In this document: positions 12,825-64,000 of the stretch, one piece after another
Numbering within the stretch: position 1 is the first letter of the stretch
Layout of the letters: each line of letters opens with the position of its first letter
NCBI GenBank assembly: GCA_963708135.1
Contig: OY970192.1
Location: forward strand, 3,954,529-4,018,528
Direction: 5' to 3'
DNA from: an uncultured Gemmatimonadales bacterium
GTDB lineage: Bacteria; Gemmatimonadota; Gemmatimonadetes; Longimicrobiales; RSA9
DNA length: 64,000 nt
Program-made: the position numbers and the translations under genes
The notes under the pieces: generated by a model
What the model saw: only the letters and a program-made list of their open reading frames with translations
Database searches by the model: none
Told to the model about the DNA's origin: nothing

Positions 12825-13127
12825 GTGGCGCCCTACATCCTGAAGCTCTTCGTGACGGGCACGACCCCGCGCGCGGACGTCGCGATCGCGAACCTCCGTC
12901 GAATCTGCGACGAGGAGCTCAGCGGCCAATACGATCTCATCATCATTGATGTGCTGAAGGACCCCCAGGCGGCCGAGGACGAGAAGGTCCTCGCCACGCC
13001 CACGCTCATCAAGCAGCTCCCCCCGCCCCTGCGCCGCGTCATCGGTGACCTCTCCGACAAGGAAAAGGTCCTGCTCGGCCTGAACCTCCGTCCCACACGC
13101 CCCCGCACCGCGGAGCAGGGCCCATGA
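12825..13127 (+). CDS. kaiB: Circadian clock protein KaiB
   Basis: 100 aa with a GTG start 8 nt after AGGAG. The sequence [31 protein letters not shown]...[25 protein letters not shown] is a thioredoxin-like KaiB pattern. Confidence 0.9.
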
Positions 13128-14671
13128 CCGACCCGGCACAGGATGGAATCAGCGTCGAGAAGCTGCCGACCGGCATCTCCAGCTTCGACATGATCGCCGA
13201 GGGCGGGCTCCCGAAGCGCCGCACGACCCTCGTCTCGGGCACTGCCGGGAGCGGCAAGACGGTCTTCGCCATGCAGTTCCTCGCCGCCGGCATCAACGCT
13301 GCCGGCGAGGCCGGCGTGTTCGTGACCTTCGAGGAGTCGCCCGACGACATCCGCAAGAACGTCCGCGGCTTCGGCTGGGACGTCCAGGCGTGGGAGGAGC
13401 GGGGCCTCTTCGCCTTCGTCGACGCCTCCCCCTCGCCCGAGACCGAGGTGATCCAGACCGGCGGCTACGATCTAGGCGGACTCCTCGCCCGCGTCGAGCA
13501 CGCCGTCCACCGCGTAGGCGCCAGCCGCGTATCCGTCAACTCGCTGGGCGCCGTCTTCTCCCAGTTCTCCGACCAGTCGATCATCCGCAGCGAGCTGTTC
13601 CGCTTCGCCTCCGCGCTCAAGCGTATGGGCGTCACCGCCATCATGACCGCCGAGCGGACCGCCGACTACGGCGGCATCGCGCGCTTCGGCATCGAGGAGT
13701 TCATCGCCGACAACGTCATGGTCCTGCGCAACGTGCTGGAGGACGAGAAGCGCCGCCGCACCATCGAGATCCTCAAGTTCCGCGGCACCAACCACCAGAA
13801 GGGCGAGTTCCCCTTCACCATCACCAGCCGGCAGGGCGTCGTCGTCATCCCGCTCTCGGCCATCCAGCTCCGGCAGAAGTCCTCCAACATCCGCATCTCT
13901 TCCGGCAGCCCCGAGCTGGATGAGATGTGCGGCGGCGGCTTCTTCCGCGATTCCGTGATCCTCCTCTCCGGTGCCACCGGCACGGGCAAGACGCTCACCG
14001 TCACGCAGTTCCTCCAGGGCGGCGCCTCGCAGGGCGAGCGCTGCCTCCTGCTCGCCTTCGAGGAGAGCCGCGAGCAGCTGATCCGCAACGCCAGTGGCTG
14101 GGGCTTCGACTTCGAGAAGATGGAAGACGAGGGGCTGCTCCGCGTCGTCTGCGACTACCCCGAGGTCGCCGGCCTCGAGGACTGGCTGATCGAGATCAAG
14201 GCCATCGTCCAGAGCTTCCGCCCCGCCCGCATCGCCCTCGACAGCCTCTCCGCCCTCGAGCGAATGGGCACGCCAAAGGCGTTCCGCGAGTTCGTCATCG
14301 GCCTCACCTCCTTCATCAAGCACGAGGAGATCACCGGCCTCTTCACCTCCACTTCCGCCGCACTCATGGGCGGCACATCGATCACTGACGGCCACATCTC
14401 CACCCTCACCGACTCGATCGTCCTGCTCCGCTATGTCGAGATGTACGGCGAGATGAAGCGCGGCATCACGGTGCTGAAGATGCGCGGCTCGATCCACGAC
14501 AAGGACATCCGCGAGTTCACGATCGACGGCGAGGGCATGCACATCGGCCGCCCCTTCCGCCACGTCACCGGCATCCTTGCCGGCTCACCCGTGCACCTCT
14601 CCCCCACCGACCTCGAGCGCGTCTGGACCCAGTTCGACTCTGACCTCGAGCGCCTCCCGCCACGCGCCTGA
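13124..14671 (+). CDS. kaiC: Circadian clock protein KaiC (double RecA-like ATPase)
   Basis: 515 aa. The ATG overlaps the kaiB stop (ATGA). CI has Walker A GTAGSGKT and FVTFEES. CII has Walker A GATGTGKT and LLAFEES. A Ser-Thr pair lies at the phosphosite position ([19 protein letters not shown]). Confidence 0.95.
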
Positions 14672-14782
14672 GCCGCACGGCGCAACCGCTGATCCCACAG
14701 GCACATGCCATGCAGAAGGGAATGGCTGTCCGAGCCGTCGAACCGCTGTATTCCACGCAGGCGAAGGGACCGGACGGACCAG

Positions 14783-16942
14783 ATGAGAGAAGGCGCTGCG
14801 GCGCACCGGGTGTTGATCCTCGGCCCCGGCGACGCCGCCCGGAAGATCGAGCGAAGATTGCGCCACGCGACCTCGTCGAGCACCGAGATCACCAGCGTCG
14901 CGGCGGTGTCGGATGCGCTCGACCACCTCCGGCGCACCGGCGCCGAGCTCGCCCTGGTTCACCTCTCCGCCGCCCGCGATGGCGGCGACGTCGTCGCCGC
15001 GCTCCACGACGTGGATCCCGACCTCCCCGTGATTGCTCTCGGCCGGCGCGCCGAGGAGCAACGCCTGCGCCGCATCACTCGCGACGGTGCGGCCGAGTTC
15101 CTGCTCGATGAGGAGCTCGATGGCGACGGCGCCGCGCGCACCCTCGGCGGCGCCCTCGAGCGCTGCCGGCTGCGCCGGATCATCCAGGAGCAGGAGGCCG
15201 CCCTCGCCGTGGCCGAGGCCCGCTTCCACGCCATCATCGAGCGGACCGCCGATGGGATCGTGATCGTCGACGGCAACGGGATCACGCGTTTCGTCAACGC
15301 CGCCGCCGAGGCCCTGTTCGGGCGTGCCGCCGCGGAGGTCCTGGGCCACGATTTCGGCTTCCCCATCGTCGCCGGTGCCACGACGGAGATCGACCTCGTC
15401 CGCCGCGGCGGCGGCACCACCGTGGCCGAGCTACGCGTGGTCGAGACCACCTGGGAGGGGCAGTCCGCCGCGCTCGTCTCGCTCCGCGACATCACCGACC
15501 GCCGCCACGCCGAGGAGCGCGCCCGCCGCCTCGCCACCGAGCGTGCCGCCCGCGCCGCCGCGGAGGCGGCAGAGCGCCGCGCGCGCTTCCTGTCCGAGGC
15601 GAGCAGCGCGCTGGCCAACTCCCTCGACTACGATGCCACCCTGGGCACGCTCGTCCGACTCGGCGTGCCGTTCCTGGGGGACTGGTGCGTCATCGACGTG
15701 CTCGAGGGCGGCGGGCTGCGCAGGGTGGCGAGCGCGCACGTGGACGCCGCGGGCGAGAGTGTGCTGCAGAAGCTGGAGTCGGCGCCCCGACTCGGAGCGG
15801 ACGACAACGACACCCCCGTCGCGCAAGCGATCCGCACCGGCGAGCCCGTCCTCATCCCCGAGGTCTCGACCGAATGGCTGCTCGGGCTGGCAAAGACCGA
15901 CGCGCAGCGGGACGCGCTAGAGCGCCTCGCGCCGGGCTCGCTCCTCGTCGTCCCTCTGGTCGCCCGCGAGCGGCTGCTCGGCGCCCTGACGCTCGCCACC
16001 GGCGGCAGCCGGCGTCTCGGCCAGGCCGACCTCGAGCTGGCCCGCGAGCTCGCCCGCCGCGCCGCGCTCTCCGTGGACAACGCGCGCCTCTACCGCGAGG
16101 CCCAGGCCGCGAACCAGGCCAAGGCCGACTTCCTCGCCGTCATGTCCCACGAGCTCCGCACCCCGCTCAACGCCATCCTCGGATATGGCGACCTGATGCT
16201 CATGGGCATCCCGGACACGCTGCCCTCGCCCCTGAAGCGCCACGTCGAGCGCATCGGCCTCGCCGCCAACCACCTGCTCCAGGTCATCGACGAGATCCTC
16301 AGCTTCGCCCGGATGGAGGCGGGCCGCGAGGAGGTGCGCTTCCAGCCCGTCCCGCTCGCCCGCGTCCTCGAGGCGGTCGTCGCCGTGATCGAGCCCCTCG
16401 CCATGGACAAGGCGCTCGACTTCGAGGTACGCCTCCCCGACCGCGGCGTCGAGATCGAGACCGACACCTCCAAGCTGCGGCAGATCCTGCTCAACCTGCT
16501 GTCGAACGCGGTGAAGTTCACGGGCGCGGGACGTGTCTCGCTGCACGCTCGCGTGAAGGGGGACCACCTGGAGATGGAGGTGGCCGACACCGGGATCGGC
16601 ATCCCGGCCGAACATCACCAGAGGGTCTTCGAGCCTTTCTGGCAGGTCGAGCACGCCGCCACCCGGCGGGCCGGAGGCACGGGCCTGGGGCTGACCGTGT
16701 GTCGTCGCCTGTCCAGGTTGCTCGGTGGTGAGCTCACGCTCGAGAGCCGCGAGGGCGCCGGCTCGATGTTCCTGCTGCGCCTGCCGCTCCGCTCCTCCCG
16801 ACACGCGGACACGGCGGCGGAGGCCGCTCCCGATCCGGCCCCCGGCTTCCGCTCCCGCTCCGACCGGCCCTGGCCGCTGCGCGCCGCCGCCCGCCCCCCC
16901 GTCGCGACGCAGGCGCCGGAGGAGCCGCCGGCGCCTGCCTAG
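14783..16942 (+). CDS. Pseudo-receiver / PAS / GAF / HisKA-HATPase sensor histidine kinase
   Basis: 719 aa from the ATG at 14783. The N-terminal REC-like fold lacks the acidic pocket (VLILGPGD; ELALVHLS where D is expected). PAS region: FHAIIERTADGIVIVDGNGITRFVN. GAF-like region: FLSEASSALANSLDYDATL...WCVIDVL. H-box: FLAVMSHELRTPLNAILGYGD. G-boxes: DTGIGI, GGTGLGLTV. Confidence 0.85.
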   Translation: MREGAAAHRVLILGPGDAARKIERRLRHATSSSTEITSVAAVSDALDHLRRTGAELALVHLSAARDGGDVVAALHDVDPDLPVIALGRRAEEQRLRRITRDGAAEFLLDEELDGDGAARTLGGALERCRLRRIIQEQEAALAVAEARFHAIIERTADGIVIVDGNGITRFVNAAAEALFGRAAAEVLGHDFGFPIVAGATTEIDLVRRGGGTTVAELRVVETTWEGQSAALVSLRDITDRRHAEERARRLATERAARAAAEAAERRARFLSEASSALANSLDYDATLGTLVRLGVPFLGDWCVIDVLEGGGLRRVASAHVDAAGESVLQKLESAPRLGADDNDTPVAQAIRTGEPVLIPEVSTEWLLGLAKTDAQRDALERLAPGSLLVVPLVARERLLGALTLATGGSRRLGQADLELARELARRAALSVDNARLYREAQAANQAKADFLAVMSHELRTPLNAILGYGDLMLMGIPDTLPSPLKRHVERIGLAANHLLQVIDEILSFARMEAGREEVRFQPVPLARVLEAVVAVIEPLAMDKALDFEVRLPDRGVEIETDTSKLRQILLNLLSNAVKFTGAGRVSLHARVKGDHLEMEVADTGIGIPAEHHQRVFEPFWQVEHAATRRAGGTGLGLTVCRRLSRLLGGELTLESREGAGSMFLLRLPLRSSRHADTAAEAAPDPAPGFRSRSDRPWPLRAAARPPVATQAPEEPPAPA

Positions 16943-27889: not shown

Positions 27890-28916
27890 TCATCTCGCGG
27901 CGGGGTTTGCCCGCCCGCCCCGCCCCGCCGCCCACGCGTCCGCCGCAGCCGCGAACCGCCGTACGATCGCGCCTGCCGCCTCCACCGCGTGGATCCCGTC
28001 CACGCTCCTGCCCGCCTGGAAGTAGTCCGCGTACGCCGAGCCCCGCAGCGAGGACCGCTTGAGCTTCCACGCGGCCTGGAGCTGGTACAGGAGCCGCATC
28101 GCGTGTTTCGTGCGCCGCCCCCTGAGCATCCGTCGCGCCAGCCACCCCGCCTTCGTGCCCACCCGCTCGATGTACGGCGTCCGAATCACCGCCAACGGCA
28201 CTCCCGTCACCTTCTCCGTGATCGCAATGTCATCGGCGTTCGCCTCCAGGATCGCCCTCTGGTAGTCCGGATGCACCCGGCACTCCGTCGTCGCGATGAA
28301 GCGGGTGCCCATCTGCACCCCGGCATAGCCGAGCGCGAGCGCCCCGACGAATCCCGCCTCGTCGCCGACGCCGCCCGCGCACACCACCGGAACACCCAGG
28401 TCGCCCAGCTCGTCCATGAGCTGCTCCGGCGTCCTCGGGCCCGCGTGTCCGCCCGCTCGGCTGTTCACCGCGATCAGTCCCCGCACCCCGTTGTCCAGCG
28501 CCTTCAGCGCCCACTTCCGCTCCGTCACGTCGTGGTACACGATCCCGCCAGCCCGCCCCACCCGCTCCACTACCCAGCGCGGGTTGCCCAGCGACGTCAC
28601 ATAGAAGCGCACCCCCTCCTCCAGCGCCACCTCCAGCCATCCCCTCCATCCGCCGCCGATACGCCTTCTGCGACCGCTCCACGATGACGTTCATCCCGAT
28701 CGGCTTCGTCGTCAGCCGTCGGATGAGACGCACCCCCTCCCGAAACTCGTGGCCGTGCACGTACACCAGCGACATCGGCTGCAGGATCCCCAGCGCCCCC
28801 GCCTTCGAGGCCGCCGCCACCAGCTCCGGGTTGCTGCACGGGTACATCGCGCCGCACAGGATCGGAACCCCTACTCCCGCATCGCGCGTCAGCGCCGTCT
28901 CGATTCCCACGCTCAT
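27890..28916 (-). pseudogene. Nitronate monooxygenase (NMO family), reading frame broken by one extra base
   Basis: The N-terminal frame (from the ATG at 28916) reads MSVGIETALTRDAGVGVPILCGAMYPCSNPELVAAASKAGALGILQP...AYRRRMEG. The C-terminal frame reads (W)LEVALEEGVRFYVTSLGNPRW...AGGHAGP...GVQMGTRF. Deleting one C from the run at 28641-28644 joins them as RRRMEGWLEVALEEG. Confidence 0.8.
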
Positions 28917-37797: not shown

Positions 37798-37966
37798 GCA
37801 CCCGTTCCCTTTGGATTGGTCCACCTCTCCTATCGGCAAGTACCAGACCAGGATAGCCCCCCTGCCCCCACCTGGCCGCCACCCTCGACGCCCCCGTTGT
37901 CCCCCACCCGCCGTCCCCCGGGGGATTGACGCTCCCCCCGCCCGTGTCCCATCTTTCCACGTCTAC

Positions 37967-37988
37967 CGAACGAGCGTTCGAACGAGCG
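37967..37988. promoter_or_regulatory. Candidate operator (pseudopalindrome plus overlapping half-site repeat) just upstream of paaA
   Basis: CGAACGAGCGTTCG (37967-37980) has 6-bp inverted arms around a 2-nt centre. CGAACGAGCG recurs at 37979-37988. The element ends 7 nt before the paaA ATG. Confidence 0.45.
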
Positions 37989-37995
37989 GAGGACC

Positions 37996-38940
37996 ATGGC
38001 ACGACTCTCCGAGGAGCAGCTCAAGCAGAAGGTCCAGGATGGCTACATCCTCGAGTCGCCGGACGAGATGACGGACGGCTACCGCAAGGCGCTCATCGTA
38101 CAGCTCCTCGTCCAGGGCGACACGGAGCTCATCAGCGCGCCCGCCTACTGGATGGCCGCGCAGGATGCGCCGTCCACGAACACCCAGGTCTCCGCCGTCG
38201 CGATCATCCAGGATGAGCTGGCGCACGCCAACATCGCCTATCGGATCCTCGAGGACCTCGGGCTGGACAAGGAGCAGCTCGTCTACGGCCGCGAGCCGCA
38301 CGAGTTCAAGCACCCCTACGGTTTCGACCAGCCCCTGGAGAGCTGGGTGGAGCTCGTCACGGCCAACGGCTTCTTCGATCGCGCGGGCATCACGCTGCTC
38401 TCGGACGTGTACAAGAACACCTCCTACGGGCCGCTCAAGCGGGCCCTCGTCAAGGTGGACCTCGAGGAGACGTTCCACCTGCGCCACGGCGAGGTATGGA
38501 TGAAGCGGCTCGCGCAGGCGGGAGGTGAGGCGCGCGAGAAGCTGCAGCGGGCGGTCGATTGGATGTTCCCGATGACGATCGAGTGGTTCGGCCTGCCGGA
38601 CGAGATGAAACGTCACAGCGGGCAGCTCGAGTACCGGCTGAAGGGACTCACGAACGACCAGCTCCGGCAGGTCTGGATGTCCTCCACCGTGCCGCTCTGC
38701 GAGTCGCTCGATCTGGATGTCCCCGCTCACTGGGATGAGGAGGAGCAGCGGTACGTGCTCGACTATCCCTTCCCCTGCCGCTACGACGCGTCGGAGAAGC
38801 GCTGGCTCTTCGAGCAGGGCCAGATCACGTGGGACCAGGTCTTCGAGCGCTGGAGGGCGCGCGGCCCGATGAACGAGCGCTACGTCGAGAGCGTCCGCCG
38901 CAGCCACGCGCCGATGAACCGGATGCTGAACGCCGCGTGA
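37996..38940 (+). CDS. paaA: 1,2-phenylacetyl-CoA epoxidase subunit A
   Basis: 314 aa. Di-iron ferritin-like motifs (IIQDELAHANIAY, DLEETFHLRHGEVW) and the overall PaaA-like sequence DGYRKALIVQLLVQGDTELISAPAYW. Confidence 0.9.
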   Translation: MARLSEEQLKQKVQDGYILESPDEMTDGYRKALIVQLLVQGDTELISAPAYWMAAQDAPSTNTQVSAVAIIQDELAHANIAYRILEDLGLDKEQLVYGREPHEFKHPYGFDQPLESWVELVTANGFFDRAGITLLSDVYKNTSYGPLKRALVKVDLEETFHLRHGEVWMKRLAQAGGEAREKLQRAVDWMFPMTIEWFGLPDEMKRHSGQLEYRLKGLTNDQLRQVWMSSTVPLCESLDLDVPAHWDEEEQRYVLDYPFPCRYDASEKRWLFEQGQITWDQVFERWRARGPMNERYVESVRRSHAPMNRMLNAA

Positions 38941-39332
38941 GCGCTCCGGGCGAGGTTTCCCGCTCCAACTCCGCGGGCGTGAGCGAGGCCGCGGGAGCCC
39001 GGCCCGCCACCGGCGCCATCGAGCCGGGCTCGGAGGCGCTCTGGCAGGCGCTGCGGGAGGTGAACGATCCCGAGTTTCCGATCAGCCTCGTGGACCTCGG
39101 CCTGGTCTACGGTATCCGCCGCGCCGGCCCGCTCGTGGAGGTGGACCTCACCTTCACGGCCACGGCCTGTCCCTGCATGGACTTCATCGAGGAGGACGTG
39201 CGAAATCGGCTGCTCGAGGAGCCCGGCGTCGAACGGGTCGAGATCCGCCAGGTGTGGGATCCGCCCTGGACGCGCGAGCGGATGACTGAAGAAGGAAGGG
39301 CCGCGCTGCGCCGCTGCGGCGTCGCCGCCTAG
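38937..39332 (+). CDS. paaD: PaaD-like N-terminal (DUF59/MIP18-type) domain protein
   Basis: 131 aa. The GTG start overlaps the paaA stop (GTGA). The sequence LWQALREVNDPEFPISLVDLGLVYGI...FTATACPCMDFIEEDVRNRL...VWDPPWTRERMTEEGRAAL aligns by eye with the first ~115 aa of E. coli PaaD. Confidence 0.75.
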   Translation: MSAPGEVSRSNSAGVSEAAGARPATGAIEPGSEALWQALREVNDPEFPISLVDLGLVYGIRRAGPLVEVDLTFTATACPCMDFIEEDVRNRLLEEPGVERVEIRQVWDPPWTRERMTEEGRAALRRCGVAA

Positions 39333-39362
39333 CCCCGCGCCCCGAAACCCGAGCCCCGAGCC

Positions 39363-39566
39363 ATGGTCTACGAGGTCTTCGCACGCAAGAGCCGCGGCGA
39401 GCCGCTGCGCCACATCGGCAACCTCAACGCGCCCGACGACGAGCTCGCGCGCGTGTACGCCTACAACACCTACGACGAGGAGAAGTGGTTCGACATGTGG
39501 ATCGCGCCGCGTGACCGCTTCCTCGAGGTGTTCAACGTCGACCGCGCCGCCGGGACGCCTTTCTGA
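39363..39566 (+). CDS. paaB: 1,2-phenylacetyl-CoA epoxidase subunit B
   Basis: 67 aa: MVYEVFARKSRGEPLRHIGNLNAPDDELARVYAYNTYDEEKWFDMWIAPRD. Confidence 0.9.
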   Translation: MVYEVFARKSRGEPLRHIGNLNAPDDELARVYAYNTYDEEKWFDMWIAPRDRFLEVFNVDRAAGTPF

Positions 39567-40369
39567 TGGCGACGACGCCGACCGCCGACGCCGCGTCGGA
39601 CCTCCAGCCGCCGGTGCGTGAGGCGCTCCGCGACCTTATCCTCGTCCTCGCCGACAGCAAGCGCCTCCTCGGCACCCGGTACGCCGAGTGGATCCTGGGT
39701 GCGCCCGAGCTCGAGACCGGCATCGCCTGCGCTTCGATGGCCCAGGACGAGTGGGGGCACGGCCGTCTCTTCTACGCCATGCTCAAGGACTTCGGCGAGG
39801 ATCCCGGACCGCTGGAGCACGACCGGGAGCCGGCGGACTATCGCAGCCTCGAGCCGCTCGACCGCGAGCCGGACGGCTGGCCCGACGTCGTCGCCCTTTT
39901 CGCGCTCGCCGATGCCGCCCTCTCCGCCCAGATCGAGGCGCTCCGCGGCTCGGCCTACGCGCCGCTCCGCCAGCGCGTGGAGAAGCTGCTGGTCGAGGAG
40001 CGCTTCCACGCCGCCCATGGCGCCGCCTGGGTCCACCGCCTGGCCGGCACGGAGGACGCCCGCGCTGCCCTCGCGGCGTCCTGCCGCGCCATGCTGCCCT
40101 CCCTCGCACGCTGGTTCGGGCCCGACTCCGAGCGCGCCCGCGCGCTCGTCCAGGCCGGCATTGCCGATGCCGCGGGTGGGGCACTCCGTGCCCGCTTTTA
40201 CGAACGCGTCGCCCCGCTGCTCGCCGCGGTCGGCGTCGAGACCACGACCGCCGAACCCGACTTCGACGGCTTCGATGAGGGCGCCCGTCGCGGCCATGCC
40301 GGCGCCCCCGATGCCGCGACCATCGCCCACGTGCGCGGCGACCTGAACCGCGCTTTCCTGATGGACTGA
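39566..40369 (+). CDS. paaC: 1,2-phenylacetyl-CoA epoxidase subunit C
   Basis: 267 aa. The ATG overlaps the paaB stop (TGATG). Motifs: LILVLADSKRLLGTRYAEWILGAPELETGIACASMAQDEWGH and EERFHAAHG. Confidence 0.85.
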   Translation: MATTPTADAASDLQPPVREALRDLILVLADSKRLLGTRYAEWILGAPELETGIACASMAQDEWGHGRLFYAMLKDFGEDPGPLEHDREPADYRSLEPLDREPDGWPDVVALFALADAALSAQIEALRGSAYAPLRQRVEKLLVEERFHAAHGAAWVHRLAGTEDARAALAASCRAMLPSLARWFGPDSERARALVQAGIADAAGGALRARFYERVAPLLAAVGVETTTAEPDFDGFDEGARRGHAGAPDAATIAHVRGDLNRAFLMD

Positions 40370-40371
40370 CC

Positions 40372-40572
40372 GTGGCCGACCTGCACGACCCCGCCGACAC
40401 CGCCGCCCGCATGGGCCTGCCCGTCGCCGTCCGCTGCCCCTTCTGCGAGCGCGACGATACCGAGCTCCATTCCCCGTTCGGCTCCGCGCTGTCCGTCGCC
40501 ACCTACTGGTGCCGTCGCTGCCACACCGCCTTCGAGTGGTTCAAGTGGGGCGCCGAAGCCGGAAATAAGTAG
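40372..40572 (+). CDS. Zinc-ribbon protein corresponding to the C-terminal part of PaaD
   Basis: 66 aa with a GTG start 2 nt after the paaC stop. VRCPFCERDDTELHSPFGSALSVATYWCRRCHTAFEWFKW parallels the E. coli PaaD tail VRCPRCASVHTTLISEFGSTACKALYRCDSCREPFDYFKC. Confidence 0.7.
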   Translation: MADLHDPADTAARMGLPVAVRCPFCERDDTELHSPFGSALSVATYWCRRCHTAFEWFKWGAEAGNK

Positions 40573-40944
40573 CGAGCCTCGCAACAAAGATCCCGCCCTT
40601 TCGGGTATCTTCGGGATCCCCGGCGCGCTCCCCGACAAGCCTGCAAGCTACTTCCAGTCCACGATTTGAGCCTCCGTTCCATCACCTCCCCGGCACCGGG
40701 AACGTGCCTTGCCCCACCGCCGGGCCGGGAGTGACGAAGCTCCCTGACAGTGCGGAAGCGACGCAGCTTCGCAACAAGACATGGACGCTGCTCAGAGCAA
40801 AGCCGCCGAAAGGCGGTGGCGCAGAGCCACGGGGCTACAGCGGTTCAGGCCGCCATGTCCGCCGGGCCGCCAGCGATTCGACACCATCGTCGAGGCTGGT
40901 GGCCCGTTGCGTTACCGGCCCGACCGCACCCGGAGGAGTGATCC

Positions 40945-41091
40945 ATGGGCAGTGCAGTCGGAATCCTCCTGATGTTGTGCCTGCCCCTGATGGTGAGCTT
41001 CATCGTCATCTGCCTCACGGCCGCGAAGGCGCTCTACAACGAGCAGGAGCGCCTGGTCACGCTCTCACGGAGCGAGGCAACGACGAGCTGA
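40945..41091 (+). CDS. Small hydrophobic protein (48 aa), below the ORF-track cutoff
   Basis: The ATG at 40945 lies 7 nt after GGAGGAG. It encodes MGSAVGILLMLCLPLMVSFIVICLTAAKALYNEQERLVTLSRSEATTS, one TM helix plus a polar tail. Third codon positions are GC-rich like the host genes. Confidence 0.4.
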   Translation: MGSAVGILLMLCLPLMVSFIVICLTAAKALYNEQERLVTLSRSEATTS

Positions 41092-41349: not shown

Positions 41350-42346
41350 TCAGGCGCGGCCGCGCCGGTCCTGGAACCAGCGAACGGTCGGGGGCAGCCC
41401 TTCGTCCAGGCAGCGGGGCGTCCAGCCGAGTTCGCGCGTCGCCTTGTCGTGGGAGTGGAGCCAGCGCAGCCCGGCCGCGGTGGCGGCGTTCTCGCGCGAG
41501 ATCGGAAACCGAAGGCCGGTGGCGCGGGAGAGCACGTCCAGCAGGACGCCGGTCCAGCGGACGAGTGGAGCCGGAAAGCGCAGGCGCGGCGGCCGCTTCC
41601 CGGCGAGTGCCACCACGCGGCCCGCGAAGTCGTCCAGCCTGGCGGGCTCGCCCGAGAGGACGTAGGTCTCCCCAGCCACACCGCGCTCGCCCGCCGCGAG
41701 GAGTCCATCCACCACGTCATCCACGTGGACGTACGAGAACCAGGAGGGGATGGAGCGGGAATCCGGGGATCCGTCCCGCCAGCAGGTCCTTCACGAAGCG
41801 GCCGTTCGGCCCCTCGTCTCCGGGCCCGTACACGTTGGCCGGCGCCACGATCACGACCGGAAGCCCCCGGCGCTGGGCTGCCACCGCGAGCCGGTGCGCC
41901 GCCGTCTTCGTCCGCTCGTATTCGGAGGTGAAGCGCGGGCCGTGCTCGGAGCCCTCATCTCCCTCGCCCGCGGCCACAGGTCCGAGCGCCACGGTAGTCG
42001 AGACGTGGACCACGCGCGCGGTGCCGGCGCCCTCGATGGCCGCCAGGAAGACGCGCGTTCCCTCGACGTTCGTGCGCCGCATCGCCGCCGCGTCCACCAC
42101 GCCGATGTCGTAGTACCCGGCCAGATGGTACGCCAGCTCCGCGCCGGCGAGGCCCCGCGCCACGGCCGCCTCGTCCCATGTCTCCCCGACGAACAGCTCG
42201 GCGCCCAGGCGCTCCAACTCGCCGGTCCGCGAGGTGGGCCTCACCAGACAGCGCAGCCCGGCCCCTCCCTCCGCCAACCGGCGGGCCAGCCGCGTGCCGA
42301 TGAACCCCGTCGCCCCCGTCAGAAACACCAGCCGCCGGTCCGCCAT
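41350..42346 (-). pseudogene. NAD-dependent epimerase/dehydratase (SDR) family, frame broken by one extra base
   Basis: The N-terminal frame reads MADRRLVFLTGATGFIGTRLARRL...YERTK...GRIPGFPLHP. The C-terminal frame reads SWFSYVHVDDVVDGLLAAGERG...TRELGWTP. Removing one G from the run at 41746-41749 gives GFPLHPSWFSYVHVDD. Confidence 0.8.
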
Positions 42347-47781: not shown

Positions 47782-49015
47782 CTACCCCCGCATGCACTCG
47801 ACTGGATCCAGCGCCGCGGCCTTGCGCGCCGGAAACAGCCCCGCCAGGAACGCTACTCCGCCCAGCAGCGCTACGGTGCCCGCCAGCGCCACCGGCGAAA
47901 GCATCGGAACCCCCACGCTGTCCTGCAGCGGCAGCCGCGCCGCAATCTTCACCACACCTACGCTGAACGCCAGCCCGAGCACGGCGCCGACTCCCACGAT
48001 CAGGAACGTCTCGCCGATGAACTGCCCCAGGATGTCCCGACGCGTCGCGCCCAGCGAGCGCTTGATCCCGATCTCGTGCCGCCGCTCCCGCACCACCACG
48101 TACATGATGTTCGCGACCCCGATCCCGCCCACCAGCAGCGTGAAGCTGCCTACGATGGCGAGGAAGAGGTTGAAGCCGCCGAACAGGTAACGGAACATCT
48201 TCATCTGCTCCGTCGTGTCCCACACGCCGAGCGCGTCCTCGTCCGTCGGATTGAACTTGTCCCGCCGCCCCAGCACCCGGTACATCCCGCGTCTGGCTGG
48301 CCTTCGACACCCGCGGATCTACCGGCTTGTAGACGATGTTGTGCAGCGTGCGTGCGCCGAACACCGCCCGGAAAGTGCTCGCCGGCATGAACAGGCGGCT
48401 TTGGTCCCGCGCGCTGTAGGAGCTGTTCTGCGTCTTGTGACGCATGACGCCCACCACCGTGAACGGCACGCCACCGACCTCGATCTGCCTCCCGACGGCC
48501 GCGCCATCTCCGAACAGCAGCCGCTTCACCTCGTCCCCCAGCACCGCCACGCGGCGCCGCTCCTGCAGGTCGATCGCATCGAGGAACCGCCCGCCCGCGT
48601 CCACGTTGATGTTGCGCATCTGCCCGTACACCGGCGTCACGCCCGTCACATACGGGCTCGTCGTCGCCTTTCCCCACCGCACCGGCGTGCCCCACCGGCC
48701 GTACTCGGGGCTGATCTGCCCGATCTCCGGCACATCGCGCTGGAGCGCTCCCACGTCCTCCTCGCGCAGCTGGATCGAGCGGCCGTCGGGGAAGCCCTGG
48801 AACGGCTTCGTCGTCTTCCCGCCGAACACGATCACGATGCCGTCGCCGAGCCCGCGCGCGTTGCGTGTCATCTGCACCTGCAGCCCGACCCCGAACGCTA
48901 GCAGCACCACCACCGCCACGGTGCCCCAGGTGATCCCGAGTACCGTCAGCGCCGTGCGCAGCCGCTGCGTGCGTACGTCGTCCACGAACTGGTCCAGCAG
49001 AGCCCGCATGCGCAT
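47782..49015 (-). pseudogene. ABC transporter permease, FtsX/MacB-type paralog, frame broken by one extra base
   Basis: The N-terminal frame (from the ATG at 49015) reads MRMRALLDQFVDDVRTQRLRTALTVLGITWGTVAVVVLLAFG...KPVDPRVSKASQTR. The C-terminal frame reads MYRVLGRRDKFNPTDEDALGVWD...ANIMYVVVRERRHEIGIKRSLGATRRDI. Removing one C from the run at 48286-48288 gives SQTRMYRVLG. Confidence 0.8.
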
Positions 49016-61971: not shown

Positions 61972-62221
61972 CACGTCCCGATACACCAACAAGGACCTGC
62001 AACCCGAACAAGGAGCCCCCGTCCCGCACAGCGGAGCCCAGCATAGCGAAGTAGCGGAGTGACCGCGACCTATGTCCTAGCCGAGGTCGACGTGATCTCC
62101 GAAGGGAGGTGAGCTGGGTGTTCCTTCAGGCGCTATTTGAGCTCATCGGCGCACTAGTTGCGCTTCTTGGCGGCGGTATCACCATCGCAAACTAGCGTCG
62201 GGCGGGGGCTCCTCCTTCTGT

Positions 62222-63544
62222 ATGAACCGAAAAGGTCAATTCTTCTTCTGGGCGGTTTTGGTGGCAGCAGCAGCTTTGCTGCTGCCCCTGCCGTGGCGTG
62301 CGTTTTGGCTCTCGACTCCGCGCGAGATCCTCGGTCTCGCCACATTTGTAGGGCTTGCTGTGCTGTCGGAAGCCATGGCCATCGGCTTCACGTTCGGTGC
62401 GTCAAAGTCCAACGCATCCATTTCGTTCGTTCCGTTGCTGGCAGCGGTCGTGGTATTCCCGCCAGTGTTTTCGGTATCGGCTGCGGCCGTTACGGTATTT
62501 GTGGCAGAGGCCTTCTTGCGGCGCCGCCCTGCGTGGCTAACAGCATTCAACACCGGCCAGTACATATTAGGGTATGGAACCGCGGCGCTCATCTACTCTT
62601 GGCTTGCGCCCGGAGGCGGCGGAGACATCAGTCTGATAGCGTTCTTACCCGCCGCGCTGGCGTTTTTCTCGGCCAACCTTTTTATTGTTTCGGGATTTGT
62701 CTCCGTTCGGCGCGGTGAGAGTCTCATTGAAACCGCCCGCCAATTCGCAGGGCCGTCCGGCGCGAATCTGTTTTATGACTTTCTTGCCACACCAACAGCG
62801 CTTTTTGCGGCCTATTTGTACACCAAGTTCTATGTGGCCGGATTATTCCTGTTCATCTTGCCATTTCTGTTAATCCGCTATTCGTTTATCTCGAAGATTC
62901 GACTGGAACAGGCCAACCGGGACCTAATTCGGGTCCTGATTAAGGCCATCGAGACCAGGGACCCCTATACATCTGGGCATTCGGTTCGGGTTTCGACGTT
63001 GGCGAAGATGATAGCGGAGGACCTTCATCTCTCGAAACGAAGGATTTACGATATCGAGACAGCGGCGCTACTACACGACATCGGTAAAATTGAGGCGCTC
63101 TACGCGGACGTGATAAGTAAGCCGTATTCGCTATCTGATACTGAACGGGCATTAATCCGGACCCATGCGACCAAGGGCGCTGACCTGCTGCACGGCCTCA
63201 GCGCCTTTGGCCCTGAGATCATCAAGGCGGTCCGTCATCATCACGAGCGATTTGACGGACAGGGTTACCCCGACGGCATCTCGGGCGCCGCGATACCGCT
63301 TGCCGCAAGAATTATCATGTTATGCGATTCCATAGACGCAATGCTGTCGGATCGCCCCTACCGATCCGCTCTAACCGTTAACGCTACTTACAACGAGATA
63401 GTGCGATGTTCTGGCACTCAGTTTGACCCCGACATAGTCGAGGTGATCTTACGCAGAGATACGCTCAGGCGTGCGGCAGGCTTGGCTGAGGCGGAACCAA
63501 CTAGACAGGCGTCCCTTACGGCAGCCGCCGCTGAGCCAGTCTAG
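62222..63544 (+). CDS. Membrane-anchored HD-GYP domain protein (putative cyclic-di-GMP phosphodiesterase)
   Basis: 440 aa. The N-terminal ~230 aa are multi-TM. HD-GYP motifs: DPYTSGHSVRVS, LLHDIGK and HHHERFDGQGYPDG. Composition is about 50% G+C with many A/T-ending codons, unlike the rest of the window. Confidence 0.85.
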   Translation: MNRKGQFFFWAVLVAAAALLLPLPWRAFWLSTPREILGLATFVGLAVLSEAMAIGFTFGASKSNASISFVPLLAAVVVFPPVFSVSAAAVTVFVAEAFLRRRPAWLTAFNTGQYILGYGTAALIYSWLAPGGGGDISLIAFLPAALAFFSANLFIVSGFVSVRRGESLIETARQFAGPSGANLFYDFLATPTALFAAYLYTKFYVAGLFLFILPFLLIRYSFISKIRLEQANRDLIRVLIKAIETRDPYTSGHSVRVSTLAKMIAEDLHLSKRRIYDIETAALLHDIGKIEALYADVISKPYSLSDTERALIRTHATKGADLLHGLSAFGPEIIKAVRHHHERFDGQGYPDGISGAAIPLAARIIMLCDSIDAMLSDRPYRSALTVNATYNEIVRCSGTQFDPDIVEVILRRDTLRRAAGLAEAEPTRQASLTAAAAEPV

Positions 63545-63593
63545 AGGCGGCGACAGCGAGCTCTACATCTGGGAGGATAGCGGAAATTGCGGA

Positions 63594-63902
63594 ATGGACA
63601 TCAGCGACTTTGAAGCATACGCCGCCCTTAAGGGCGACGAAACCCTCCGCGTGCGGCCTGATCGCACCGCCTTGCTTGTTGTCGACATGCAGCGGTATTT
63701 CGTGGAACCTGAGTTCCCGTTCGGCCAAGTCTTAGCCAAGTTTCAGCCTGACGCAGCGGCTGCGTATTTCGACCGTGTCAAAACTACCGTAGTTCCAAAT
63801 GTCCAGGAATTGCTCAAGCCCATCTTGAACAGTTTGGAAGGGGTACGCGTCCGAAAGCCGTTGTGCCGCAACAATCCGACCGCCGCCGCCGCCGATCTGT
63901 AG
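63594..63902 (+). CDS. Isochorismatase-family (cysteine hydrolase) N-terminal fragment or short homolog
   Basis: 102 aa. RPDRTALLVVDMQRYFVEPE is the typical N-terminal strand and motif. The ORF stops after a GCC-repeat, far short of the usual ~180-200 aa. It may be truncated or frameshifted. Confidence 0.4.
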   Translation: MDISDFEAYAALKGDETLRVRPDRTALLVVDMQRYFVEPEFPFGQVLAKFQPDAAAAYFDRVKTTVVPNVQELLKPILNSLEGVRVRKPLCRNNPTAAAADL

Positions 63903-64000
63903 TGCCACAGAGTGCACCCCTAGACTCGCCCGTAAAGCAGGCTAACAACATTGCATCAGCGCCGGTCCACGCGTAGCTTGCCGTAGTGCTCCAACCGGCG

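Follow-up and report, generated by a model that had tools for sequence, protein, structure and literature searches.

A cluster of five genes that resembles the phenylacetyl-CoA epoxidase operon, in which PaaD is encoded in two pieces and the reductase PaaE is missing, raises the question of whether this is a damaged copy of a known system or an established variant of it, and from where such an oxygenase would draw its electrons and on which substrate it would act. The cluster lies in a stretch of 64,000 nucleotides (the window; G+C content approximately 72%) of contig OY970192.1, from an uncultured Gemmatimonadales bacterium placed within the Longimicrobiales, an abundant and little-studied soil order. 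We favour, with moderate confidence, its interpretation as a repressor-controlled PaaABC-type aryl-CoA oxygenase operon of a distinct clade, with a two-gene PaaD, an external electron donor and a substrate similar to phenylacetyl-CoA. The split-PaaD layout is the normal form of a whole branch of the family, and is a variant rather than an anomaly. To our knowledge, PaaD is the only component of the phenylacetate epoxidase that has no assigned function, and a permanently split PaaD allows each half to be deleted, tagged and analysed for metal separately.

The operon and its two-gene PaaD

The five open reading frames (ORFs) of the cluster were found in the order, and with the tight or overlapping packing, reported in a preliminary description of this DNA:

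37988 to 37993, + strand: Shine-Dalgarno-like GGAGGA 5' of paaA, identified by sequence reading
37996 to 38940, + strand: paaA-like gene for a catalytic di-iron oxygenase subunit (314 aa)
38937 to 39332, + strand: gene for a DUF59 protein, corresponding to the N-terminal half of PaaD (131 aa; GTG start, the true start codon being uncertain)
39363 to 39566, + strand: paaB-like gene for a bridging subunit (67 aa)
39566 to 40369, + strand: paaC-like gene for a partner subunit (267 aa)
40372 to 40572, + strand: gene for a stand-alone four-cysteine zinc ribbon, corresponding to the C-terminal domain of PaaD (66 aa; GTG start)

The paaA stop and DUF59 start share the letters GTGA, and the paaB stop and paaC start share TGATG; 30 nt separate the DUF59 stop from the paaB start, and 2 nt separate the paaC stop from the GTG of the ribbon gene. 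Database records hold identical products of 131, 67, 267 and 66 aa for the DUF59 protein, PaaB, PaaC and the ribbon. No terminator was detected 3' of the ribbon gene.

All five products were assigned to Pfam families with scores that exceed the gathering scores. The PaaA-like and PaaC-like proteins both matched PaaA_PaaC (PF05138; E-values 9e-59 and 9e-41), the DUF59 protein matched FeS_assembly_P/DUF59 (PF01883; 1.7e-16), the PaaB-like protein matched PaaB (PF06243; 2.6e-8, 34.4 bits against a gathering score of 27), and the ribbon matched Zn_ribbon_PaaD (PF23451; 3.2e-15, 55.9 bits against 27). The window PaaA aligned with E. coli PaaA (3pvr_A) at 4e-29 and approximately 30% identity, and the PaaC-like product scored higher with the PaaC model TIGR02158 than with the PaaA model TIGR02156. 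Scores with the NCBIfam models were 125.5 bits for PaaA (TIGR02156, cutoff 280), 32.7 bits for PaaB (TIGR02157, cutoff 85.45) and 98.5 bits for PaaC (TIGR02158, cutoff 133.35). The PaaB-like protein (39363 to 39566) additionally matched TIGR04031, "Htur_1727 family rSAM-partnered candidate RiPP", at 3.8e-7 and below cutoff; the PaaB fold family therefore overlaps a candidate peptide-precursor family.

Both small ORFs matched the NCBIfam PaaD model (TIGR02159, 146 positions) in a profile search of the kind that had been proposed for them, with 67.7 and 33.7 bits for the two PaaD-half ORFs against a cutoff of 108.15. The DUF59 ORF covers positions 1 to 89 and the ribbon positions 101 to 144, with no overlap. 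The alignment of the ribbon with the C-terminus of E. coli PaaD, which had previously been made by eye, was thus right, since the two ORFs cover separate parts of the model. In the enzyme that we propose, the PaaA-like protein would be the catalytic di-iron subunit and the PaaC-like protein its pseudo-symmetric partner, PaaB would bridge two heterodimers, and the DUF59 protein and the four-cysteine ribbon would jointly replace PaaD as accessories for maturation or metal delivery.

We compared the operon with its relatives in a scan of species-representative genomes, queried with an alignment of six sequences, which confirmed at least 537 relatives and returned Longimicrobiales loci; counts of gene context are taken from the best loci (81 Longimicrobiales loci, L001 to L081). 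The best 80 loci of the scan were all from Longimicrobiales or Gemmatimonadota, with 74 to 85% PaaA identity. The preliminary description had called for a survey of related clusters, and the order PaaA-DUF59-PaaB-PaaC-ribbon, on one strand, was found in 77/77 Longimicrobiales loci that are long enough, while the other four end at a contig edge. In 80 related loci, a PaaB-like gene stands at the corresponding place. Mean identity to the window was 79% for PaaA (81 loci), 66% for PaaB, 61% for the DUF59 protein, 59% for the ribbon and 49% for PaaC. Thus, the description of PaaD as two genes that flank paaB and paaC holds, whereas its implication of a local split does not, as the architecture is fixed across the clade.

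The ribbon ORF is a genuine gene under selection: it follows paaC in all 77 of these loci, its motif CPFC-x21-CxxC is invariant, with the four cysteines kept in 78/78 copies, and its variation by codon position is 0.31/0.26/0.46, the third positions being the most variable. An AlphaFold2 model (predicted local distance difference test score, pLDDT, 81.6) predicts a three-stranded zinc ribbon. The solved folds nearest to this predicted structure by Foldseek are the zinc ribbons of Elf1, NrdR, Rpb9 and VdcD, all with E>0.1 and none significant, and the ribbon sequence gave no match when searched against the PDB.

The comparative data refute an origin of the split in misassembly, in a frameshift or in the pseudogene decay of a paaD that was formerly fused, and we rate the probability of such an origin as practically nil. 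A possible frameshift does occur elsewhere in the window, where an epimerase is present as two ORFs against one 335-aa gene in the related locus L001; however, a frameshift cannot produce the split, because paaB and paaC separate the two PaaD parts. Moreover, 77 independent assemblies, and loci of other phyla, show the identical arrangement, and both PaaD parts are under purifying selection. The evolutionary direction may be either, as the split could be a fission of PaaD or the E. coli PaaD could be a fusion.

Stand-alone ribbons of this kind have already been catalogued by annotators but are unstudied. A profile of six diverse ribbons retrieved 220 proteins, and the 120 that were listed are all stand-alone, 44 to 95 aa in length, and carry PF23451 only. 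They are named "PaaD-like zinc ribbon domain-containing protein" by NCBI and "PaaD zinc beta ribbon domain-containing protein" by UniRef, and the haloarchaeal forms have models of their own, NF041868 for PaaD and NF041869, a zinc-ribbon model of 56 positions that bears the NCBI label "PaaE". In the literature accessible to our searches we found no paper that joins PaaD with "zinc ribbon", none on the split and none on phenylacetate genes of Longimicrobiales.

We identified further differences between individual Longimicrobiales loci around the operon. An extra, highly conserved 99-aa DUF59 gene is located 5' of paaA, on the same strand, in at least 27 of the 81 loci, and is absent from the window. 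It ends approximately 17 to 365 nt (mostly <200 nt) before paaA (L019, 9668 to 9967; L031, L035, L069 and L076), and its product resembles PaaD less than it does the SUF-associated type (TIGR02945, 91.5 bits). Thirty-one loci have, 3' of the ribbon, a 252-aa gene that belongs to no Pfam family and is lacking in the window; it was treated as unrelated.

Relatives of the operon outside the Longimicrobiales

The operon shares with the E. coli/Pseudomonas PaaABC(D)E systems (TIGR02156 to TIGR02159; PDB 3PW1 and 4IIT) the ferritin-like pair PaaA/PaaC together with PaaB, the six metal ligands, the residues Lys103 and Phe108, and the DUF59 and four-cysteine ribbon modules of PaaD. It differs from them in sequence (approximately 30% identity), in its gene order, which is A-D(N)-B-C-ribbon and not A-B-C-D-E, and in its lack of PaaE. 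The lysine bridge of PaaA is likewise changed, from K68/E49 to I/Y, and E. coli PaaC has lost the ligands equivalent to E72, H75 and E155.

The haloarchaeal Paa proteins (NF041867, PaaB; NF041868, PaaD, 127 aa; NF041869, "PaaE", 56 aa) combine a DUF59-only PaaD with a stand-alone ribbon, like the window. Their models were the best NCBIfam matches of the small proteins, yet the scores lie far below the cutoffs (102.9 bits against 180 for the DUF59 protein with NF041868, 35.5 against 150 for PaaB with NF041867 and 34.7 against 100 for the ribbon with NF041869), and the haloarchaeal gene order is unlike that of the window. The canonical haloarchaeal PaaA retains the lysine bridge and falls with the E. 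coli type in a rough neighbour-joining (NJ) tree, whereas the window PaaA does neither. The haloarchaeal PaaD and "PaaE" and the window proteins have the same domain organisation and belong to different orthologous groups. For annotation, the presence of PaaA/PaaC does not mean that a canonical paaABCDE system is present, and the haloarchaeal label "PaaE" stands for a zinc ribbon rather than a reductase.

Among 1.84 billion cluster representatives, searched exhaustively, only 886 PaaA/C relatives were found. Full-length PaaA relatives are graded in identity to the window (76, 57, 49, 45, 45, 41, 40, 39, 36 and 33%), with the E. coli type at approximately 30%, and the named members of the clade come from Dormibacteraeota, Bacillus sp. 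M6-12, Paenibacillus and Haloarchaeobius. We located the gene contexts of these distant members separately, from their proteins:

Bacillus sp. M6-12 (L082): CoA-transferase, then A-DUF59-72aa-C-ribbon (48 aa); 3' of the ribbon, a short-chain dehydrogenase/reductase (SDR), enoyl-CoA hydratase (ECH), metallo-beta-lactamase (MBL), PaaK-type ligase, second ligase and 4HBT
Paenibacillus sp. UMB4589-SE434 (L083, 6141 to 12073): A-DUF59-64aa small ORF-C; ribbon gene not called
Haloarchaeobius (L085): A-86aa-C-ribbon; DUF59 gene 1.5 kb away, beside a 2Fe-2S ferredoxin gene
Dormibacteraeota-like (L086): A-DUF59-two small ORFs-C-ribbon (44 aa), then TetR, ECH and PaaK-type ligase
Metagenome (L087): aldehyde dehydrogenase (ALDH), then A-DUF59-PaaB-C-ribbon, then MaoC, thioesterases, ECH and ligase
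Metagenome (L088): A-DUF59-small ORF-C; ribbon gene not called
Metagenome (L089): A-DUF59-68aa-C-ribbon-4HBT

The PaaK-type ligases in these clusters were identified by AMP-binding_C_2, and ALDH and MaoC form a PaaZ-like pair. The PaaA proteins of the distant loci cluster with that of the window in the NJ tree, apart from the E. coli-type and canonical haloarchaeal PaaA. Four of the clusters (Bacillus sp. M6-12, the Dormibacteraeota-like locus, L087 and L089) have the same gene order as the window, 39 to 49% PaaA identity and no PaaE, and their PaaA carries tyrosine or hydrophobic residues at the lysine bridge, like that of the window. They lie in catabolic islands with genes for ligase, ECH, ALDH, MaoC and thioesterase, in contrast to the Longimicrobiales operon, which is isolated. 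In Paenibacillus, the operon is located directly 3' of genes for an adenylation enzyme, a carrier protein and a PabB-like aminodeoxychorismate synthase, a biosynthetic rather than a catabolic setting.

Could the operon instead encode a second, paralogous oxygenase, with a canonical paaABCDE system, with fused paaD and paaE, elsewhere in the genome supplying the reductase and the pathway? Haloarchaeobius provides a parallel, having the PaaA of this clade besides the canonical haloarchaeal type known from NCBIfam, and our comparison covered 64 kb of the genome. Nevertheless, the top 120 PaaA homologues, which are named Longimicrobiales or Gemmatimonadota, and the best 80 loci are all of the type found in the window; this evidence is of the negative kind only, and with it we consider a second, canonical system very unlikely.

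Active-site residues and the electron donor

We mapped the residues of the window PaaA by HMMER alignment to 3PVR, taking residue roles from the review of Grishin and Cygler (PMC4498308). The di-iron ligands Glu42, Glu72, His75, Asp126, Glu155 and His158 (E-E-H-D-E-H) are all present in the window, and in all representatives of the clade save for conservative D/E or E/Q changes in three. Lys103 is described as the door for the substrate, and Phe108 as the residue that positions the phenylacetyl ring above the irons (PMC4498308); they correspond to K105 and F110 of the window protein and are invariant in 82 Longimicrobiales PaaA copies.

In contrast, the lysine bridge of PaaA is not retained. 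In this bridge Lys68 pairs with Glu49, Glu72 and Asp126, and a role in electron transfer near the docking face of PaaE has been suggested for it (PMC4498308). In the window PaaA, Ile70 takes the place of Lys68 and Tyr51 that of Glu49, both replacements being invariant over the 82 Longimicrobiales copies, and the remaining members of the clade have hydrophobic or other residues at these positions, while lysine and glutamate are kept in E. coli-type and canonical haloarchaeal representatives. The clade thus appears to couple the loss of PaaE with the loss of the PaaA lysine bridge.

The PaaC-like subunit is also distinctive, with K-E-H-D-E-H at the six positions that hold the metal ligands in PaaA, so that 5/6 are kept, as against C-L-Q-D-A-H in E. 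coli PaaC. Residues E62, D116, E145 and H148 are invariant in an alignment of 87 rows that includes the distant loci; H65 is found in 86/87 rows and K32 in 84/87, the exceptions being non-Longimicrobiales rows where checked. The same pattern is common to six other representative clusters, despite the 49% mean identity of PaaC. This subunit may either bind metal itself or have a lysine that neutralises the carboxylates. The joint change of no PaaE, no lysine bridge and retained PaaC ligands provides a testable link to electron delivery.

The preliminary description had noted the absence of paaE, paaK and ring-opening genes from the window, and this was confirmed by Pfam scans of approximately 65 further ORFs across the 64 kb, which detected neither a reductase of the FAD/NAD/2Fe-2S kind nor any AMP-ligase, crotonase, ALDH/MaoC or TetR gene and extended over all but a few short or unassigned stretches. 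Similarly, no PaaE-type reductase appears among the Pfam-labelled genes of L001 and the inspected distant loci; in the 81 Longimicrobiales loci the Pfam scan addressed recurrent neighbour families only and was not a search for PaaE homologues. A cluster without paaE is not unusual, because the paaR-paaABCD-paaZ operon of Thermus also lacks it and a survey from 2009 found 19/23 paaE genes in clusters. The question of what donates the electrons, which had been asked of this locus before, stands and is sharpened by the clade-wide loss of the lysine bridge. We suggest that electrons would come from a redox partner encoded outside the cluster, for example a general ferredoxin and its reductase, with no dedicated PaaE.

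Alternatively, the ribbon could itself bind iron in the manner of rubredoxin and replace the Fe-S domain of PaaE, served by a general NAD(P)H:rubredoxin/ferredoxin reductase, which would make the enzyme a PaaE-independent epoxidase. Such a role would agree with the lack of a PaaE-type gene in the window and in the inspected relative loci, with the loss of the bridge proposed for PaaE-dependent electron entry, with the position of the ribbon as invariably the last gene of the operon, its four cysteines unchanged, and with the "PaaE" label that NCBIfam gives to the haloarchaeal stand-alone ribbon NF041869. We nevertheless consider it quite unlikely. In E. coli PaaD, the equivalent ribbon forms one chain with DUF59, and this protein is required in vivo but not in vitro, where catalysis proceeds without it if PaaE is supplied; the knuckles of the window ribbon (CPFC and CxxC) resemble those of zinc ribbons and not the CxxCG/CPxCG of rubredoxin; and its neighbours in Foldseek, weak as they are (all E>0.1), are zinc ribbons and include no rubredoxin.

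A more far-reaching proposal would treat the clade as a distinct class of PaaE-independent aryl-CoA epoxidase, with another route for electrons, a ribbon or DUF59 protein that serves as a redox or assembly subunit, a metal-binding PaaC, and, in Longimicrobiales, a core function across the order under a PaaR- or LexA-type operator in place of an accessory catabolic one; taken as a whole, we regard this as unlikely. Our preferred interpretation keeps a general redox partner and an accessory role for the two small proteins.

The operator, the probable substrate and further features of the window

Two sequence features precede the paaA-like gene:

37926 to 37931, + strand: candidate -35 hexamer TTGACG of the paaA promoter, proposed from reading of the sequence
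37967 to 37980, + strand: 14-bp palindromic operator CGAACGAGCGTTCG, 16 nt 5' of the paaA ATG

The operator is the sole match in the 64 kb to CNAACGNNCGTTNG, the operator consensus reported for Thermus thermophilus PaaR, where 0.02 matches are expected. The window operator CGAACGAGCGTTCG is exactly the Thermus PaaR box, with 10/10 specified positions of the consensus matched. PaaR is a TetR-family repressor of paa operons, with phenylacetyl-CoA as its reported effector. The paaR-paaA-paaB-paaC-paaD-paaZ operon of T. thermophilus HB8 resembles that of the window in having no paaE and an operator directly 5' of paaA, and differs from it in gene order and in the state of PaaD, and in that the window operon has no adjoining paaR or paaZ.

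We identified 25 perfect matches to CNAACGNNCGTTNG in 1.5 Mb of related DNA (that of the window included), all of them 5' of paaA. Twenty-two lie within approximately 150 nt of paaA, and the other three at about -790, before an intervening PilZ/YcgR gene. In several related loci the operator is located just 3' of a promoter of the form TTGAC-N17-TAnnnT, while in the window itself the -10 is weak and a promoter scan called nothing. The intervening gene, which encodes a YcgR-like PilZ protein (a receptor of cyclic di-GMP, c-di-GMP), lies between operator and paaA in three Longimicrobiaceae loci (L038, 9275 to 9934; L045; L078).

The centre of the palindrome is G-N-N-C, as PaaR requires, in approximately 85% of sites, while a few sites have other centres, which fit LexA and not PaaR. 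No second box was found in the 28 loci with a box at paaA (approximately 0.55 Mb), so a local regulator fits better than a global one; the remaining boxes occur only in L053 and L054, inside or at the end of unrelated genes. Searches for further traces of a regulator gave no TetR gene among the window ORFs scanned or near the operon in 81 loci, no PaaR-like palindrome common to the distant loci, and, in the related-locus DNA examined, no lexA or recA from which a local SOS box could have been defined. The G-N-N-C centre, the lack of a second box and the precedent at the paaA promoter would favour a local repressor of the PaaR type, and LexA may be an alternative binder of the operator.

As for the substrate, the preliminary description had doubted that it is phenylacetyl-CoA. 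This doubt is weakened by the conserved Lys103 and Phe108, the paa-like contexts of the relatives and the PaaR-type operator, and on these grounds phenylacetyl-CoA appears the likeliest substrate. It would most likely be phenylacetyl-CoA or a very close aryl-acetyl-CoA, which these peptide-degrading bacteria might obtain, for example, by breaking down phenylalanine, and the ring-opening enzymes downstream in the pathway would be encoded elsewhere in Longimicrobiales genomes.

Several findings weigh against this interpretation. Every subunit scores below its NCBIfam equivalog cutoff, so orthology of function is not assured. The operon is orphaned in all 81 Longimicrobiales loci among housekeeping genes, namely those for penicillin-binding protein 1A (PBP1A), M1 peptidase, saccharopine dehydrogenase, phosphofructokinase (PFK), gyrA, a pyridoxal phosphate (PLP) decarboxylase and an extracytoplasmic function (ECF) sigma factor, and none of the ligase, ECH, MaoC, ALDH, 4HBT, ferredoxin and TetR sequences of the distant loci, used as tblastn queries, gave a match within 10 kb of the operon in the 81 loci (1.5 Mb). 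The mean PaaA identity of 79% is unusually high for a catabolic enzyme. The operator box is present in only approximately 28 of 82 lineages (about a third), and its sequence agrees with the LexA box of the Gram-positive/actinobacterial type, (T)CGAAC-N4-GTTCG(A), as well. Phe108, kept in the window, varies in the distant clade, with methionine in Bacillus and Paenibacillus, alanine in L087, and alanine, threonine or glutamate elsewhere, which makes it probable that members of the clade have different substrates.

The orphan position and the high conservation of PaaA may leave room for a different or broader role. In its strongest form, this would mean that the Longimicrobiales operon is no longer phenylacetate-catabolic and acts on another CoA thioester or in a core or stress function, possibly as part of the LexA (SOS) regulon, which we consider unlikely. 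Besides the isolation among housekeeping genes, such a role would be in line with a PaaA that is more conserved than PBP1A, M1 peptidase, PLP decarboxylase and saccharopine dehydrogenase (50 to 60% identity; the cold-shock protein has 81% and the ECF sigma factor 65%), with the 537 or more relatives in species-representative genomes, with a palindrome equal to the SOS box of the M. tuberculosis/Bacillus type, a few of whose centres suit LexA and not PaaR, and with the extra SUF-type DUF59 gene 5' of paaA in at least 27 loci. However, the invariance of Lys103 and Phe108, the predominance of G-N-N-C centres, the lack of a second box in the 28 loci and the placement of the sole other boxes in or at the end of unrelated genes argue against such a role. 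In either case, the analysis flags a highly conserved oxygenase operon in this order.

We additionally noted features of the window beyond the operon. A c-di-GMP-I riboswitch of full length (RF01051), which scores 57.6 bits where the gathering score is 35, is located at 40786 to 40874 on the + strand, approximately 210 nt 3' of the ribbon, and a hydrophobic ORF of 48 aa (MGSAVGILLMLCLPLMVSFIVICL...) follows approximately 70 nt past it, at 40945 to 41091 (+). Both lie in a stretch of approximately 780 bp that L001 lacks, its epimerase gene lying directly against the ribbon gene. A link between riboswitch and operon was rejected, as the seven closest loci have no c-di-GMP-I riboswitch.

The NAD-dependent epimerase/dehydratase is encoded in the window by two overlapping ORFs, at 41350 to 41724 and 41717 to 42346 on the - strand, as against the single 335-aa gene in L001, and this split may reflect a frameshift or an assembly error. 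A nitronate monooxygenase ORF (27890 to 28630) covers only positions 110 to 274 of the 331 in its profile, and an FtsX-only ORF at 47782 to 48285 looks truncated.

Genes for KaiB (12825 to 13127) and KaiC (13124 to 14671) are followed by one for a PAS-GAF histidine kinase (14705 to 16942, +), which together resemble a clock-protein cassette in a Gemmatimonadota-type genome. Finally, the G+C content falls from approximately 72% to 57% over positions 62000 to 64000, a segment that has an HD-GYP-type (HD_5) protein at 62222 to 63544 and no rRNA or other Rfam match, and which may be foreign DNA.

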